From Escherichia coli (lineage in GTDB: Bacteria > Pseudomonadota > Gammaproteobacteria > Enterobacterales > Enterobacteriaceae), in the NCBI RefSeq assembly GCF_011045215.1, contig NZ_CP049201.1: 64,000 bases of DNA, one strand, 5' to 3'. The position numbers and the translations under genes were made by a program. The notes under the pieces are model-generated. The model searched no databases. It was not told the DNA's origin and worked only from the letters and a program-made list of their open reading frames with translations. Shown one piece after another: positions 12,453 through 48,800 of the stretch (positions are counted from its first letter, which is position 1; the number at the start of each line of letters is the position of its first letter).

Positions 12453-12870
12453 TGGTTTTGTAGGCCGGATAAGGCGTTCACGCCGCATCCGGCGACAGGA
12501 GCCAAATGCCGGATGCAACGCTGGCGCGTTTTATCCGGCCTACAATGAGCTCAACATACTGATTTGTATGGTTTTGTAGGCCGGATAAGGCGTTCACGCC
12601 GCATCCGGCGACAGGAGCCAAATGCCGGATGCAACGCTGGCGCGTTTTATCCGGCCTACAATGAGCTCAACATACTGATTTGTATGGTTTTGTAGGCCGG
12701 ATAAGGCGTTCAAGCCGCATCCGGCGACAGGAGCCAAATGCCGGATGCAACGCTGGCGCGTTTTATCCGGCCTACAATGAGCTCAACATACTGATTTGTA
12801 TGGTTTTGTAGGCCGGATAAGGCGTTCAAGCCGCATCCGGCGACAGGAACCAAATGCCGGATGCGTCTCT
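12453..12870. repeat. Tandem BIME/REP array, about 3.6 copies of a 116-bp unit
   Basis: Unit beginning tggttttgtaggccggataaggcgttca(c/a)gccgcatccggcgacagga... recurs at 12453, 12569, 12685 and 12801 with near-perfect identity; each unit holds two inverted REP palindromes. Confidence 0.85.
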
Positions 12871-24350: not shown

Positions 24351-24523
24351 AAAGTTCTTTGACGTTGCATTGCTGGCGTAAATGTCAGCAATGCAGCATT
24401 TCCTCACGATTCTCCTTTGACGATCGCACTTTTTGCTCGTTATGATGGCGTCGCTAGCCTCAGTAAATCCTTACTCCGGCGGTGCGCAACCCGTGCGCGT
24501 GAACCACTATCTGAATGCTCATC

Positions 24524-41473: not shown

Positions 41474-43745
41474 GGAAAACTCCCCAGTGTTGCAGCGATG
41501 CCAGTGCCTGCTGTTCGAGTTGTTGATGATGTGCAATGGCTTGCGGAGGATAATGCAACGGCATTTGCAGCGCTGAAACAGGAAGCTGCGCAAGCTGGTA
41601 ATGCTCAAGCACCTGATGCGCCAGTGTCCCGCGTTCTCGTGGCGGTAGCCAGGCCATCGCCGCGCGCAAATCGGGCAAGGCGTTAATAAAATCGTCGTCA
41701 CTCAGTTGATTTAAATGACTACTGAAACCGGCGATAAATGCTGGTTGGCAGGCCAATTGATGACGGGCGAGCGCCAGCAAACCGTGCAGCGCCTCGCCGG
41801 ATTGTGCCGGGGATAACTGCGCCAGCATCGTCAGCGCCGCTTCGGCACTGGCGTTGGGATGTTCCAGACGCATCAGTGCGCCAAGAGCCGCGCCGCGATC
41901 CAGCGCCGGGACATGAATCGCCTGACTGCGGCGCTCCAGTAAGGCTACCGCCGCAGAAAGAAAAACGCCGGGTAAATTAACGCCGCTATGTAGATCGCGC
42001 AGGATATGGCAAAGCGCCTGCCAGCTATGCATGTGAGCGTGAAACTCCTTTTCATCTGGTCTGCCGTTAGATTCACACAGCCACAGCGTGCGATCGATAG
42101 CCGCGCATAACGTCGTTTGTAATATCTGCGCGCCTTGCATACCGCTAATTTCATCCAGCCGCCATAAGGCATATAGCACTTCCAGCGCCTGGCCCATTTC
42201 GGCAAATTGATTTTCCTGGGCGATTAATAATGTGAGTTGCTCCAGTAATTGCTCACTAAAGCTCGCCAGGCCCGCTAACGCCGCCTGGCTTAGACATGCG
42301 GTAATGCTGCCGATTCCACCCGCGTCCAGCATATCGGCTTCTAATTTATTGCGTGCGGCTTCCTGGAGCGTGGCACCAAAGCAGGCGGCCTCAATTAATG
42401 CCGCATGCTGGCTAAGCGGCTGGGTTAATTTCCACTGTTCTTCACCGTTACCCGCAAGCGTCAGTGTACTTCCGTGCTGGCGCACAATGCCGGGAATCTC
42501 CAGTATTGCCAGCCGATGTAACACCTGACTTTGCGCTAGTCCATTGGGGTTAAAGCGATTTAAGGTAAGCTCCACCGGAAGAGAGATTGCGGTACGTTCC
42601 AGTTCGCAGGTGACATCTTTTGGCAGAGGCGGTTGTGGCGTAGAAGGGGCAAGTTTACCGAATCCGTCACCCGCTAATGTGTCTATCAACGTTAGCAGAA
42701 TCGGATCGGTGTCGGGATGAATAACTCCGCGATAGCTCCACGGCAACGGCGCGTTCAGGGCTTCTTTAATCAGCGAGCCTGCTATGGCATCCAGCCAGTC
42801 AGTGCGTAACGGTAGTTTATGTCCGCGCAACTGTGCCAGCGCCATCGCATGCAGATGAGCGGCAGCCATATCCGCGGTCGAAGCAGGCAAGTGGTGTTGG
42901 CGCAAACGGGTAAGAACCGTTTTTAGCAGTTGTTCTCCCGCCTGCTGTAAGCCCCACTGCCAGCACCAGCTTTGCCAGACCGGGGCAGGCATTCCTGAAA
43001 GGTATCCTGCCAGCACATCAAGGCGCTTTTCACTGTAGGGTGTGAGATAACAACCTGTAACGGCATCTGCCAGCGAGGGCAATTCTGGCTTGTTAATGTC
43101 CTGCGGGCATTCGCGCCACATTTTTGCCAGTGCCGGAGCGTGCCAGCCACCGCAGACGACTAACACGTCGCCATTATTTTGCTGCACCGCCCATGCAATC
43201 CAGCGAGCCATAAAGGCTTCGCGCTGACGATTGAGTGCATCGCCGGGGAAATCGCCCCGCAGTTGGGCAAAATAGTGCGCCAGTGCAGAGGGTAATGCAG
43301 TTTGCTGGCTTTCATCTTCGAACAAGTGATCCCACAGGGTATCGCTGTTATCCATGCGGGAGGCACGCAGCAGCAAGGTCTGGCTTTCCTCTTGCGTTTC
43401 AGGCGAATCGTCCTCTTCTTCACTCTGTGCCCAGCAAGGCAAATCGATGAAGTAAGTTTGTGCCTGAATACGACGAGCGGCTTGTAGCGCCTGCCACTCC
43501 GGCGAAAATTCAGCAAATGGCGTCCAGGCACCACGCCCGGGGGCTGCACCGTCCTGATACTGGCAATAACTGTAAATAGCTACCGGAAGCTGGTGGGCTA
43601 AAAACAGTTCGTCTACCCGGTCATTAAAATCAGCCGGGCCTTCAATCAACACGTATCGTGGCCGCTGGCTTTCGATTAACGATTTCACCAGCCGGGCGCA
43701 GGCCGGACTATGATGCCGGATGCCGACAATTAACGGCTCGCTCAT
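41466..43745 (-). CDS. yehM: Large (759 aa) protein of unknown function in the MoxR-VWA module
   Basis: Internal start MSEPLIVGIRHH... sits 10 nt after the yehL stop; no domain recognisable by eye. Confidence 0.7.
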   Translation of the reverse strand: MSEPLIVGIRHHSPACARLVKSLIESQRPRYVLIEGPADFNDRVDELFLAHQLPVAIYSYCQYQDGAAPGRGAWTPFAEFSPEWQALQAARRIQAQTYFIDLPCWAQSEEEDDSPETQEESQTLLLRASRMDNSDTLWDHLFEDESQQTALPSALAHYFAQLRGDFPGDALNRQREAFMARWIAWAVQQNNGDVLVVCGGWHAPALAKMWRECPQDINKPELPSLADAVTGCYLTPYSEKRLDVLAGYLSGMPAPVWQSWCWQWGLQQAGEQLLKTVLTRLRQHHLPASTADMAAAHLHAMALAQLRGHKLPLRTDWLDAIAGSLIKEALNAPLPWSYRGVIHPDTDPILLTLIDTLAGDGFGKLAPSTPQPPLPKDVTCELERTAISLPVELTLNRFNPNGLAQSQVLHRLAILEIPGIVRQHGSTLTLAGNGEEQWKLTQPLSQHAALIEAACFGATLQEAARNKLEADMLDAGGIGSITACLSQAALAGLASFSEQLLEQLTLLIAQENQFAEMGQALEVLYALWRLDEISGMQGAQILQTTLCAAIDRTLWLCESNGRPDEKEFHAHMHSWQALCHILRDLHSGVNLPGVFLSAAVALLERRSQAIHVPALDRGAALGALMRLEHPNASAEAALTMLAQLSPAQSGEALHGLLALARHQLACQPAFIAGFSSHLNQLSDDDFINALPDLRAAMAWLPPRERGTLAHQVLEHYQLAQLPVSALQMPLHYPPQAIAHHQQLEQQALASLQHWGVFHV

Positions 43746-43755
43746 GCATCTTTCC

Positions 43756-44844
43756 TCACGGCAGGCGGTGGCGGGCTTGATAATAAGCCTGCCAGTGAGC
43801 TTCTTTATGTGTGGCGACACGCTGTTCGAAGTAACGGCGCAGACGAGCGCGATCTTCTTCGTTATCTTTGACGATGGTTCCGGCAATACAGTCCACCAGG
43901 TCGGCAGGCTCCCCCGCGCGATTCGCTAAAAACCAGGCGCGGACGCCCACGGCGTGGGCCACGTTCACGGCTTCAGCGGTGGACATAATCGCTGTTAGTG
44001 TATCCATTGACGTTTTCTTTTCGCCGTTGGCACGCAGATCGCGGAAGGTGCGGACCAGTAACTCCAGTACCGCGTCAGGCACTTTATGCGGAATACCGCT
44101 ATGGGCCAGCAAACGCGCCGAAGCACTGGCGACAAGCTCCAGCTCTTGGGCGAAATCCATAATCGGAAAGACAGTTTCAAAATCGAAGCGACGCTTTAGC
44201 GCAGCACTCATTTCATTGACGCCGCGATCGCGGGTATTGGCAGTGGCAATAATATTAAAGCCTTCTCGCGCATAGAGCTGACTGGCTTCACCAGTGAGTT
44301 CCGGCACCGTCATCACCCTGTCAGAAAGCATACCTAACAGACAGTCTTGCACTTCCAGCGGTGTACGCGTTATCTCTTCAAAACGGACGATTTTGCCGTC
44401 GCGCATTCCCTGGTAAAGCGGGGCAGGGACCAGCGCTTCCGTTGATGGACCATGATTGATAAGCAGGGCGTAGTTCCAGCCGTACTTGATTTGATCTTCG
44501 GTAGTAGATGCGCCGCCCTGGATGGTTAACCCGGCATCGCCGCTAATAGAGGTTGCCAGTAATTCAGACAGGAGAGATTTTGCGGTGCCAGGTTCCCCCA
44601 CCAACATCAAACCGCGTCCGGTGGCAAGAGTGACTAACATACGTTCGACAGCGGAGGGACTAATCACCACTTTACGGCTAATATTTTGCGCGCTATCGCC
44701 AAGGATAAAAGCACGGGCCGCAGGCAAACTTAACTGCCAACCGGGCGGGCAAGGTGCGTTATCATTTTGTTTTAATTTTGCCAGTTCATCGGCGTATAAC
44801 ACAGCAGCAGGCGGACGCTGCAGATGATTATTCTGCGGTGACAT
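43756..44844 (-). CDS. yehL: MoxR-like AAA+ ATPase
   Basis: Walker A GEPGTAKS is encoded at 44575..44598 (read directly from the DNA); Walker B-like and sensor regions follow; internal start MSPQNNH... preceded by an SD gives 362 aa. Confidence 0.8.
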   Translation of the reverse strand: MSPQNNHLQRPPAAVLYADELAKLKQNDNAPCPPGWQLSLPAARAFILGDSAQNISRKVVISPSAVERMLVTLATGRGLMLVGEPGTAKSLLSELLATSISGDAGLTIQGGASTTEDQIKYGWNYALLINHGPSTEALVPAPLYQGMRDGKIVRFEEITRTPLEVQDCLLGMLSDRVMTVPELTGEASQLYAREGFNIIATANTRDRGVNEMSAALKRRFDFETVFPIMDFAQELELVASASARLLAHSGIPHKVPDAVLELLVRTFRDLRANGEKKTSMDTLTAIMSTAEAVNVAHAVGVRAWFLANRAGEPADLVDCIAGTIVKDNEEDRARLRRYFEQRVATHKEAHWQAYYQARHRLP

Positions 44845-44952
44845 ATATTCATCCCTGAAATGTATTAATGAAATAAACGATATTTTACGCGCAATAAATG
44901 TTTGGCGCATTAGTTGTTTGAGCGAAAAATATCTGGAAAGCAGATTACAGTA

Positions 44953-44990
44953 AATAAAAAAACCTGCTGGTGAGGCAGGTTCTTTTATTT
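44953..44990. terminator. Bidirectional rho-independent terminator in the yehK-yehL intergenic region
   Basis: 7-bp stem aacctgc/gcaggtt flanked by an A run upstream and a T run downstream, so it gives a U tract on either strand. Confidence 0.5.
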
Positions 44991-45276
44991 ACTATTTTCA
45001 GGCCTAACACCACAGCCTGTGCAACATCGTGTTCCAACGAACGAATTATAACCACGGCTGGACCCCGTTGCAATTAAGATAATGAGATTTATAATCCAGA
45101 CCGTTGGGACGTTGCGCCGGATCGAACCTATTTCAAGTCCTGGCTACCGGACGGGTGGTGCTGCAGGTGGTGCCCTGATCCGGAGTGCAACATCGTGGTC
45201 CAACATACGTAAACCAGTATCGACAGGCAGTGTAAGGGTAAGGTGCTGGTGTTGCGCTCCTTAATAAGGAGAGCGG

Positions 45277-45366
45277 ATGGACTCGCTGACACAAAAGTTA
45301 ACCGTGCTCATTGCTGTACTGGAGCTATTAGTAGCTCTGTTACGTTTGATTGATTTGTTGAAGTAA
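45277..45366 (+). CDS. Unannotated 29-codon hydrophobic/amphipathic peptide ORF (candidate small toxin-like membrane peptide)
   Basis: ATG preceded by SD aaggag (5 nt spacing); MDSLTQKLTVLIAVLELLVALLRLIDLLK; putative promoter ttgcaa-N16-tataat at 45068..45095; hairpin aaggggga-N7-tccccctt at 45389..45411. Confidence 0.35.
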   Translation: MDSLTQKLTVLIAVLELLVALLRLIDLLK

Positions 45367-45475
45367 CGGGCAAATTGAAACGCATCTAAGGGGGAAAACC
45401 GCTTCCCCCTTTAATAAAGCTATACTCGTCATACTTCAAGTTGCATGTGCTGCGACTTGAATTATCTAGAGTATA

Positions 45476-45793
45476 TTATTCTATTTCTTGGTTGAATATA
45501 TTCTGTAGTTCACGATTAAAAATTGCTATTACAGTTTCAGGTGATTCACCTCGTAATTTCCGCTCATCAATACACTCATCTCTTATATAAATCAACGCAT
45601 CATTTATTAGCGGGTCAGCATCTTCTCGATCACGTTGATGAAATGTTGGATGTAGCCGGAATCGCTCCAGTCGATAGACGGAACCTGTAAATAATTCAGA
45701 GCATTTATGGATCTCAAGTCTGAAGGAAAACGGATCTTCAGGTACAGGGACCTCATAATCGTAAATAGCAACCAGCTCTTTTTGCACGATCAT
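45476..45793 (-). CDS. yehK: Small acidic protein of unknown function
   Basis: 105 aa ORF 60 bp downstream of yehI on the same strand. Confidence 0.6.
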   Translation of the reverse strand: MIVQKELVAIYDYEVPVPEDPFSFRLEIHKCSELFTGSVYRLERFRLHPTFHQRDREDADPLINDALIYIRDECIDERKLRGESPETVIAIFNRELQNIFNQEIE

Positions 45794-45853
45794 CGCTTTC
45801 CCCGCTGGTAAGTCGTGTTGATAACGGGCAGTTGCATCACTGCCCGCTGTGTT

Positions 45854-48800
45854 TTAATGGAAAATGACGTCAGCTGCGCTTAACGCCTCACTCAAATCAA
45901 ACACATCGAGTTCGGCAAAAGTGACGGATTTATTGTTACGGTAAACCCGAAGAGAATGGAAGCTCATCAGCGCTTTGCTATCAGCACTGTAGTGGTTAAA
46001 ACCGGGTGAAAACTTAAGGACCAGCCGGTACTCACCCAGGTCATAGACAAATGCGTCCTCATAGCCTGACTCCCAGCCTTTGTATCGCATTCCCATAAGT
46101 TGCCCAACGGTAGCGGATTTACCTTCCCAGCGAGTCAGGCTGTTACTGGTTGACTCGTCAGGTGTGAGCAGCACCGTGCGGCGCGACAACTGGCGAAAAG
46201 GCGGCATAATTTCGTAATCGGCAAAAAGCTGTGCAAATTCACTGCGCATTTCTACTGTCATTTCTAACGGGTGGGCAATGCCAATCAGAGCGTCCGCAGG
46301 CAGGTCAATTGGCTCATCTTGCGCATTGCAGAACTCCCCCTCTGCGGCCACACGAAAGGCGTTGAGTAAACAACGCGGTTCATTTGCCGGATAAACCCCC
46401 CATATTAATCGCTGGGTAACCAGACGGGTAAAGGGATGATTAACAAACAGAGAATGAAAATCTGCCAGCGACCAGCGTCGGGTGGTACGTAGGGCCGTTT
46501 CAAGACGCGGGAGCAGGTTTTTGCTCACCTGAGTGGCATCTTTTTTTAGCCCTTTTAGTTGGGCCAGTGCCTCGGGCGCTTTCAGTTGATCGTCATCGGC
46601 GCGCAACCGGGGAACGCTTTTCTGGCGAACGTTTTGCTGATCAAAGATAATCGGGTTGAGGTTTTCATCGAAGCGAACGGTAAACTGCCGGGGACCAAAA
46701 TCAAAAATCAACGCCTGCGGATCATCAAGGCCAAGGGTTGGGACTAATCTGTCCGCTAGCTCTTCCTGGCTTAGCCCGCGATTTTCTGCGACCACCTGAA
46801 GAAATTCCGCCGCGTTATCACGTAAGGGGCGGGATTTAGCCCGTTGCGATATATGATGCAGCTGTATCAGCGCCATATCATTATTCATCAGGGTAAGGAT
46901 GTTCAGGCCGCTGACAGCACGGGCAGATTTGCCTTCTTGTGGCCAGGCGAGGATCTGTGTCGTCAGATCCCGTGCCGTGCTTTCGTCACCAAAGAGACTT
47001 AACGCCAGAAATGCCCAGTTGTCTTTTGCGGGGGCACCAGCTTGTTGCCACGCAGTGAAGAGATCCCAGGCAAAAGCTGCCAGCGTTTGTGGCTGGCAGA
47101 ACGTTTTCAGTTGTTCCAGCCCGCTATAAAAACGTCCCCCCTGGGTAAAGCGCAGCATTTCGCCGAAAATTTCCAGAGCGTCATCGGTAACAGTTTGATT
47201 ATTAGTGATAAGGCGCGGCCTGGACCACATTTGCGGATGCCAGAAATCAGGGGCTTTTGGAATGCGTGCCGGGTAAATCTCTATTGGACTCTGTTTAAGT
47301 AATTGTTCCAGGGCAGGCCATAGATCTGTACGCTGCCAACGATTGGCTAAAGTTTGTAGCAATTCGCCATGCCCATGTTCGTAAAGTAAACGCAGGGCAA
47401 GTAATGCAGCTTCGCTTTTATCGCTGGATTTGGTGAAGACAAGAGGGATAAGTGCAGTAGCCGTATGTTCCGGCCAATGTAAAATCCACTGGCGAGCCAG
47501 ATTACGCTGGCCCGCAAAACGGTGCCAGACGCGGGCAATGGGCAGGGCCAGTTCTGTTGCGCCGAAATTTAAAATTAACGGAAATGTTTCTTTTGGACGA
47601 TGTGAAAAAGCCAACAGCAGACCTGGTAGCGCATCCAATCCGAGGATACTGAGAAAATAGTCCTCACCCGCGAACAGATGCTTTTTCTCATTGATACGCA
47701 GCCAGAAGGTCAAAGCTATCTCACGCGGCAACTGTGCCAATAAATACAGGTTCCAGACACTCTTTTCCGGACGATAACGTGAGTAGTTGTCATTTTCCCA
47801 TATGTTAATTAACGCTTCTACGTGACCACTGCGAAGCGCCTGTTCTGCTAATGGTGCTTCCGGGGAGTTCCAGCCATTCAGGATCTCTTCAACCCGCCCC
47901 TGGTAGTAATGCCACTCAACAATGAGTGAATTGCGTGCAGCATCCAGTTTTCCGGGGAGTATATAATTCAAAAACAGCCATACATCATCCCCAAAACCCA
48001 GTTCCTGTAATACAACTCGCCCACTTTTTTGTTCCATGCGTTCCGCAAGAGATTCCGTGCTGAAATAACGGGCAGGCTCAGTGGCGGCAAGCCTCTCTCG
48101 TTCGCCTGGTTGCCAGTAAACTTGCGGAGTTAATTCGAGCCGTGCCAAATCAAGACGTGGAGCTGTCATTTTTTTCTTACTACGCCACGGTGGTGAAACG
48201 AGGATTTCAGGCAGATTGCTGTTATCGGTGCCATCAATAACCGGTTTTGGCAGTGCCGATAAATAACTCTTCAGCACTGCCCTGGCTTGAGTACTTAACC
48301 ACGGCATCACTTCTGCTGCCAGTTGTGGCTGCGATGCCATCAGCGTTTGTAACAGCGTACGCCAGTATTCATCGCGTGCTTTTTGCTGTGCAGGCAGCTT
48401 TTTGTCTTCGATGATTGGATAACCAGGGCGGGCTGGTGGTTCTGTTAACGCCAGCAGTTCTGCCAGTGCGGCGAGCGTCGCATGGGGGAAGTTTTTATGG
48501 TATTTAGCTACACGTTGCAGGCTGGGTTTGTTTTTATCAGCCACCAGTAGCAAGGTGCGGATGACTTGCGGATGGTTAATTTGTACCAGCAGACTGCCGC
48601 AATCTTCTTTATAGGCATACATCGCGAGGCGCGGAATGGCTGCCAGTCCTTGTTCGCGCAAAAGGGCGGCGCAGGCCGCGTAGCCGAAGTGGTTTTCATG
48701 CGACATGTAGCTGGCTTCTCGATCGCTAAATATATCCTGGCTCCAGTAGTGTTCGAGTTTTCTCACCGCTGTGGGGTCATTAGCTACAACTTTTAACCAC

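Follow-up and report, generated by a model that had tools for sequence, protein, structure and literature searches.

[quoted passage not shown]

Results and discussion

Two divergent small genes lie between yehL and yehK

The window, by which we mean the whole 64,000-nucleotide stretch of E. coli DNA that was analysed, contains a spacer of ~630 nt between yehL, the upstream end of which lies near 44844, and yehK (45476..45793). Both of these genes are on the minus strand, as are the other large neighbours, yehM and yehI; the names of all four come from annotated homologous genomes. The spacer holds a toxin gene, zorP, on the plus strand and a small RNA gene, orzP, on the minus strand, and the coordinates of their features are given in Table 1. 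The toxin gene had been picked out in an earlier note, made from the letters of the DNA alone, and the elements described there were recovered. The 29-aa ORF and its translation were confirmed at 45277..45366 (+), antisense to the flanking operons as claimed, and the near-consensus Shine-Dalgarno (SD) sequence with 5-nt spacing corresponds to AAGGAG at 45266..45271, 5 nt 5' of the ATG. The predicted sigma-70 promoter, TTGCAA-N16-TATAAT, was found at 45068..45095 (+) with 10/12 consensus matches, and the leader of ~180 nt expected from it measured 174 nt. The downstream GC hairpin, given as 8 bp, is present at 45388..45411, where 9 bp with 5 G-C pairs were counted (arms 45388..45396 and 45403..45411, 6-nt loop).

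The start of the zorP mRNA was placed at the G at 45103, 7 nt past the -10 hexamer, on the basis of the published 174-nt untranslated region. This puts the ribosome-binding site (RBS) exactly at +164..+169, and the antitoxin target at the 3' end of +73..+102; zorO, the paralogue of zorP, is reported to have a 174-nt untranslated region with its RBS at +164..+169 (PMC5397157). The probable 3' end lies just past the hairpin, in agreement with the published transcripts of ~280 and ~310 nt (PMC3919570). The hairpin is part of the minimum free energy (MFE) fold and is kept in other copies, with a loop variant, in the alignment of related strains; a simple scan did not call it a canonical terminator, as its T-run is weak. 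An ORF of 60 aa at 45082..45264, within the zorP leader, was rejected, as its start lies 5' of +1; the published analysis of the zorO leader found no AUG or RBS-preceded start (PMC5397157).

The orzP promoter, TTGCAA-N17-TATAAT at 45073..45045 (-), shares its palindromic -35 hexamer with zorP. The two promoters (45038-45103) are mirror images about this one TTGCAA, and both RNAs start with GUUGG.

Table 1. Features of the zorP-orzP locus in the window
Feature	Position	Strand	Basis or remark
orzP sRNA gene, ~83 nt	44956..45038	-	Rfam RF02083; +1 = G at 45038
OrzP terminator hairpin, AACCUGC / GCAGGUU, then U7	44961..44981	-	Rfam structure line, fold, inverted repeat
orzP -10, TATAAT	45045..45050	-	promoter scan; sequence as in Table 3 of PMC11264685
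Palindromic TTGCAA, -35 of both divergent promoters	45068..45073	both	consensus scan, first hexamer on each strand
zorP -10, TATAAT	45090..45095	+	promoter scan
zorP mRNA	45103..45413	+	174-nt 5' UTR, ORF, 3' hairpin; 3' end inferred
5' 28 nt, putatively removed by processing (Δ28)	45103..45130	+	predicted to pair with the EAP region in full-length RNA
EAP region (+73..+102)	45175..45204	+	coordinates transferred from PMC5397157 and PMC11264685; GGAGUG motif conserved
EAP segment GGAGUGCAACA (+80..+90)	45182..45192	+	complementary to UGUUGCGCUCC
OrzP target site (+83..+102)	45185..45204	+	pairs with OrzP +1..+20; direct repeat D1, duplex energy
UGUUGCGCUCC, strand closing the SD (+148..+158)	45250..45260	+	inverted repeat I3
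SD-sequestering hairpin	45257..45271	+	CUCCUU 45257..45262 (+155..+160), loop AAU, AAGGAG 45266..45271 (+164..+169)
zorP ORF	45277..45366	+	29 aa and stop codon; encodes MDSLTQKLTVLIAVLELLVALLRLIDLLK
3' hairpin	45388..45411	+	AAGGGGGAA / UUCCCCCUU, loop AACCGC; probable transcript end or stabiliser

Identity of the toxin and of its antitoxin

The peptide MDSLTQKLTVLIAVLELLVALLRLIDLLK was, by exact look-up, an exact match to 'Small toxic protein ZorP' (UniProt ZORP_ECO57) of E. coli O157:H7. ZorP is defined as ZorO T3S (PMC11264685), and serine in place of threonine at residue 3 is the sole difference between the window peptide and ZorO. The ALLRL motif needed for ZorO toxicity (PMC6669753) occupies ZorP residues 20-24. 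The 29-aa genes z3289 and z3290, each with a divergent sRNA of ~85 nt, were first described between yehI and yehL in strain EDL933, and the toxicity of Z3290/ZorP and the transcript of sRNA-2/OrzP were shown for the O157:H7 genes (PMC2887945). They were given their new names, zorO/orzO and zorP/orzP, in PMC3919570, and zor/orz have been studied experimentally since 2010 by the Fozo laboratory (PMC2887945, PMC3919570, PMC5397157, PMC11264685).

Rfam was scanned over 43500..46500 and over the whole 64-kb window. The family RF02083 ('OrzO-P RNA antitoxin family') gave a full-length match at 44956..45031 (-) with a score of 99.9 bits (gathering score 60, E = 1e-16). This match was unique, and no second copy of zor or orz was found when looked for in the 64-kb window. 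Published Orz transcripts are ~85 nt long (PMC2887945), and Orz sRNAs differ most at positions +9..+11 (V1), which read GAA in OrzO and ACG in OrzP (PMC3919570). The published position of V1 therefore places the OrzP +1 at 45038, 7 nt past the -10 hexamer (45050..45045). With this start the 5' end of the sRNA is GUUGGAACACGAUGUUGCAC, V1 is ACG, and the arrangement GUUGGAAC-ACG-AUGUUGCAC is that of the OrzP type. For this typing the window was aligned with K-12, the two-copy strain O111:H8 and four strains that have a single copy. In the alignment the window runs colinear with the O111:H8 copy on the yehL side, and the yehK-side copy of that strain reads GUUGGUAC-GAA-AUGUUGCAC, the OrzO type.

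The gene had been described in the earlier note as self-contained, and this did not hold, as zorP is one half of a two-gene module with OrzP. A search of the opposite strand for an antisense sRNA had also been proposed there. The minus strand does carry such an sRNA, and its gene begins at the left edge of the interval 45000-45420 given in the note; it is, however, not a true antisense of the ORF or of its untranslated region, as OrzP is divergently transcribed and pairs in trans with the leader at +83..+102.

In its details the module agrees with zorP-orzP of O157:H7 EDL933 (z3290/sRNA-2), with the same peptide, OrzP 'ACG', promoters, 174-nt leader, SD position and yehK-yehL site (PMC3919570, PMC2887945), the chromosomal site yehI/yehK-yehL being as published (PMC2887945). 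It differs in that the window has a sole copy, whereas EDL933-like strains carry it in tandem with zorO-orzO, as seen in O111:H8; the P-type unit of the window instead directly adjoins the flank on the yehK side, which is a remnant of a dispersed repeat. The paralogous zorO-orzO (z3289/sRNA-1) has the same architecture, leader length, SD hairpin, pairing of the 5' end with the EAP, and ALLRL motif. The feature of the window is almost certainly a single-copy zorP-orzP type I toxin-antitoxin module between yehK and yehL, and this module is already known, named and experimentally characterised, rather than a new gene.

The claim that the gene is unannotated was right for RefSeq/PGAP only, as zorP and orzP are present in UniProt (ZORP_ECO57) and Rfam (RF02083). 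No RefSeq/PGAP feature was found at the locus in nine related genomes examined, and neither NCBIfam nor PADLOC had a model matching the 29-aa peptide. zorP thus looked unannotated because RefSeq lists nothing and NCBIfam lacks a model of the peptide, an absence that has no bearing on its function. As zor/orz are already named, held in Rfam and UniProt and dissected experimentally, the finding carries little weight as a discovery. Both genes are nevertheless omitted by RefSeq/PGAP in all related genomes inspected, so that scans of raw sequence will keep 'rediscovering' them. The proposal of a type I toxin gene like tisB or dinQ, with a long and structured leader, was borne out by the membership of zorP in the zor/orz family, and the locus is a useful positive control because a type I toxin was correctly recognised from sequence alone.

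The OrzP terminator lies within a 19-nt, 95% palindrome (44949..44993) flanked by an A-run and a T-run. This element is terminator-like on both strands and might in addition keep minus-strand transcription that starts in yehK from reading through into yehL. Weak Rfam matches to Thr and Trp leaders and to isrH were set aside, as they scored far under the gathering scores and fell on the terminator hairpin and the dispersed repeat.

Conservation and distribution of zor/orz

The comparison covered fifteen zor copies: that of the window, those of eight E. coli genomes, and those found in three further Escherichia species. The copies outside E. coli were found with a pattern made up of the RBS and the N-terminus, one genome being scanned per species, and the only matches were in E. 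whittamii, Escherichia sp. E1V33 and Escherichia sp. MOD1-EC7003. Twelve ORF nucleotides vary among the 15 copies; ten of the changes are synonymous, one exchanges TAA and TAG, and one is S3/T3, and the peptide is invariant apart from S3/T3. Loss of the frame in close relatives had been named in the earlier note as evidence that would speak against the gene, and the frame was instead conserved in all 15 copies. The -35 hexamer, both -10 hexamers and the SD are also invariant, and the promoters, the RBS and the length of the ORF match the published consensus exactly (Table 3 of PMC11264685).

Distribution was assessed by searching 5426 complete E. coli genomes with 44900..45480. Some match was present in 5424/5426, a count that overstates carriage of the locus because the end of the query is a dispersed repeat with matches at multiple sites per genome; 3392/5426 contained 80% or more of the query. 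K-12 and many other strains have the first 237 nt only, comprising orzP, both promoters and ~31 nt of the zorP leader. These counts reproduce the published picture, in which 25% have one pair, 42% two pairs and ~30% orz only, including 'orzPmg' in MG1655 (PMC11264685). The yehL-yehK spacer, ~630 nt in the window, is 1239 nt in O111:H8 and 306 nt in K-12. Against 45134-45460 of the window, the deletion junction of K-12 joins ATTT to GAATTAT; one of its sides is close to the Δ28 processing site, and the other falls within the dispersed-repeat remnant. In several strains (L004, L006, L007) the annotation gives yehK and/or yehI as pseudogenes with a frameshift or an interruption, while zor/orz are intact.

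By blastn, zor was present on several plasmid records. A tblastn search of plasmids with the ZorP peptide gave no match, the probable cause being the low-complexity filter.

The dispersed repeat occupies 45421-45475, in the gap that separates the zorP hairpin from the end of yehK, and occurs at a median of 5 places per genome, with a weak isrH-like Rfam match. Strain 2A has a version of it that is ~70 nt longer at the same spot. The two versions look like the short and the full form of an ERIC/IRU element.

Pairing of OrzP with the zorP leader

OrzP +1..+20 pairs with 45185..45204 through 19 of 20 nt (6 + 13), with one internal A·G mismatch. The predicted duplex energy is -34 to -39 kcal/mol, against -23.7 ± 2.8 kcal/mol for shuffled sRNA 5' ends. 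According to the published rule, pairing requires 15 or more nt when it is continuous, and 17 or more when it is discontinuous with one mismatch (PMC3919570, PMC11264685), and the 19 paired nt of OrzP and zorP satisfy its second form despite the A·G mismatch. OrzO, with GAA at V1, forms a continuous duplex of 18 nt, whereas OrzP, with ACG, forms the 6 + 13 nt duplex. Cross-pairing between the O and P types was predicted to be 7-15 kcal/mol weaker than cognate pairing, and OrzP does not repress zorO (PMC3919570).

Variation of zor/orz among the 15 copies is greatest in the pairing region. Four pairing alleles occur among them, each cognate pair keeps 18-20 bp, and the predicted cognate duplexes of the four alleles are 7-18 kcal/mol better than the non-cognate ones. 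This trans-covariation directly supports the pairing of OrzP with zorP.

Two Orz 5' ends beyond the O and P types, GUUGGGGCGCCAUGUUGCA and GUUGAGAUGCCAUGUUGCA, were seen in E. coli (L006, L008, L009), with the target GCAACAUGGCGACUCAAC and 19-20 nt paired in each case; at least one of them is probably the published 'Q' type. Of the direct repeats shared by the orzP region and the zorP leader, only D1, which is the pairing site, is meaningful; D2 and D3 are short and lack colinearity, and were put down to chance.

Leader structure and proposed mechanism

In the consensus fold of the 15 leaders, +1..+22 is paired with +74..+102, and the MFE fold agrees. The SD is closed by CUCCUU in both folds, and the sequence of this hairpin is invariant in the 15 copies. 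Occlusion of the RBS is published for the zorO leader (PMC5397157), the structure of which was probed experimentally, as is the processing of zorO (PMC5397157). Loss of the 28 nt raised the predicted unpaired probability of the EAP from 0.28 to 0.37 and that of the OrzP target from 0.33 to 0.44, while the SD was predicted to stay closed (0.08 in the full-length RNA, 0.11 in Δ28). Double-sided changes were found in 0/58 predicted pairs of the leader among the 15 sequences, a result that neither supports nor contradicts the fold because the diversity of the 15 leaders is too low. The zorP and OrzP 5' ends pair with one common segment of the leader, and the cis-inhibitory 5' end of zorP resembles a built-in copy of the antitoxin.

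Processing, the EAP, the role of RNase III and the block of translation are known from the zorO/OrzO paralogue (PMC3919570, PMC5397157). Overproduction of ZorO leads to stasis, from which cells are rescued by the first 18 nt of OrzO in a manner that needs RNase III and not Hfq (PMC3919570). Translation of zorO is inhibited by the full-length leader and favoured by the Δ28 form; it depends on the EAP except when the SD has been opened, and OrzO blocks it in the absence of RNase III as well (PMC5397157). [quoted passage not shown] ZorO resides in the inner membrane and causes its depolarisation, a fall in ATP and the formation of hydroxyl radicals (PMC6669753, PMC9860968). Extra copies give better growth in aminoglycosides, independently of toxicity, and the amount of ZorO produced from a single copy in its native context is too low to be detected (PMC9860968).

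By analogy, zorP would be transcribed from the sigma-70 promoter at 45068..45095 as an mRNA of ~310 nt, the 174-nt leader of which would keep the toxin silent in two ways, through the SD hairpin and through the pairing of its 5' ~28 nt with the EAP (+73..+102). Removal of the first 28 nt would open the EAP and promote initiation at the still-structured SD, the EAP acting as a ribosome standby site in the published model. The first 20 nt of OrzP (~83 nt) would pair with +83..+102 and block activation, and this pairing would direct RNase III-dependent decay. ZorP, as a 29-aa hydrophobic helix, would enter the inner membrane, where depolarisation and a fall in ATP would bring growth to a stop. 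Repression by the sRNA and its dependence on RNase III are known from OrzO acting on zorO (PMC3919570). While the identity and anatomy of the genes, the pairing, and the conservation of the frame and of cognate pairing are observed here, we infer from near identity that the published steps, including Δ28 processing, operate for the zorP/orzP copy of this strain.

Other readings of the locus

Judged by themselves, the ORF, SD, promoter and hairpin are not beyond chance: 3.5 kb of this DNA contain 58 ORFs of 20 aa or more, and the 2 promoter-like sites of the scan compare with 1.5 expected from shuffles. With short ORFs and promoter-like hexamers this frequent, the features could be envisaged as a chance intergenic ORF with fortuitous SD-, promoter- and hairpin-like sequences. 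This reading is refuted, and its probability is negligible, because the peptide is identical to a named protein that is toxic in experiments (PMC2887945), an Rfam-level antitoxin adjoins the ORF, and the substitutions have the pattern of a coding sequence; the conserved frame, the identity with a named protein and the adjacent antitoxin therefore establish zorP as a real gene. A real gene could still be a relic that looks intact and is functionally silent, the peptide not being made naturally and only the sRNA mattering, as in orz-only strains. That ~30% of E. coli, including K-12, keep and express orz alone (PMC11264685), and that native ZorO is undetectable from one chromosomal copy (PMC9860968), would be in line with such a relic. 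However, the peptide is under strong purifying selection, the 15 copies from four Escherichia species differing by 10 synonymous changes and a single conservative one, and this makes a relic very unlikely. No variation in the SD, start codon, promoter or ORF length occurs in the same copies, and the conservation of ORF length (99.5%) and RBS (99.8%) in 2,439 published loci (PMC11264685) also argues against it.

The identity of zorP/orzP would be kept, and only the activation step changed, if the freed EAP segment GGAGUGCAACA paired with UGUUGCGCUCC and so released the SD after processing, in an anti-anti-SD switch resembling the mutually exclusive structures of dinQ. OrzP would then repress by occupying the EAP and thereby keeping the switch from forming. 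The inverted repeat concerned (I3) has 11 pairs, including one G·U, with a predicted helix energy of -17.8 kcal/mol, and 2/1000 shuffles of +29..+140 reach such complementarity to the anti-SD strand. Forcing the helix was predicted to free the SD at a cost of +6.0 kcal/mol in the full-length RNA against +3.6 kcal/mol in Δ28, and the pair probability was 0 in the former against 0.05-0.16 in the latter. A published GAG-to-CUC mutation in the same motif lowers the toxicity of Δ28 (PMC11264685), an effect that such a switch would also explain. In contrast, lead and RNase T1 probing detected no change of the RBS stem in Δ28 (PMC5397157), the helix is absent from the predicted MFE structure, and the anti-SD strand is invariant in the 15 copies and thus gives no covariation. 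In the O-type allele the helix contains an internal A·G mismatch (-13.9 kcal/mol), and with six inverted repeats in 481 nt a chance match is possible. The alternative models discussed in PMC5397157 do not include pairing of the EAP with the anti-SD. That GGAGUGCAACA may act as an anti-anti-SD, rather than as a standby platform only, is thus improbable, and the switch is put forward as a low-probability refinement of the standby model. If it were true, the 5' end of the mRNA (GUUGG...GUUGCGCC) and OrzP (GUUGG...GUUGCAC) would be mimics that compete for the same element, in cis and in trans, and zor, as a three-way RNA switch, would resemble dinQ more than tisB.

Comparison with tisB and dinQ

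The earlier note had called the peptide TisB-like, and this applies in class and mechanism and not in demonstrable sequence homology. As in zor, the divergent sRNA of tisB-istR-1 uses its 5' end to pair with a site that precedes a structured SD by ~100 nt, and only the 5'-processed tisB mRNA is translated well, for which a standby model is also invoked (PMC5397157). TisB is, like Zor, a 29-aa membrane-depolarising peptide. The full-length zorO mRNA is still weakly translatable, unlike that of tisB (PMC5397157). In a comparison with TisB, the local BLOSUM62 score of ZorP was 45 (z = 3.2 against shuffles of a leucine-rich peptide), which we regard as compositional.

The dinQ-agrB pair, found on the E. 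coli chromosome and on IncX plasmids, belongs to the same divergent-sRNA subclass as zor/orz. Whereas tisB is SOS-controlled and dinQ LexA-regulated, no LexA box (CTGT-N8-ACAG, at most 1 mismatch) was found around the zorP promoter in 44940..45110; LexA-box-like matches across the whole window numbered 18, which is chance level. The leader of a dinQ-like gene on a Salmonella IncX1 plasmid is 73.5% identical to zorP +28..+140 over 113 nt (E = 7e-5), with its start codon in the same register as that of zorP, and this likeness hints at a common ancestry of zor and dinQ leaders. A similarity of the zor and dinQ leaders has been remarked before (PMC11264685). The Orz target sequence is not conserved in the IncX1 leader, and the ZorP and plasmid DinQ-like peptides gave no BLASTP alignment (shuffle z = 2.25). 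The shuffle z values of ZorP against DinQ-like peptides, TisB and ShoB, at 2-3, were treated as compositional. The dinQ-like gene, MIDKAIIVLGALISLLELIRYLLQLMG, is annotated on NZ_CP039600.1 (L013, 901-1134), and its 3' sequence 'CCTTTAATAAA' is similar.

Other features of the window

Elsewhere in the window, Rfam gave three tandem naRNA4 matches (RF02564) on the plus strand, at 12463-12540, 12579-12656 and 12695-12772, with scores of 79-86 bits and a period of 116 nt; the array (12463-12772) is a repeat array of the REP/BIME type. A Peptidase-S11 motif (RF03039) was found at 24439-24519 (+), scoring 72.8 bits against a gathering score of 34.8.
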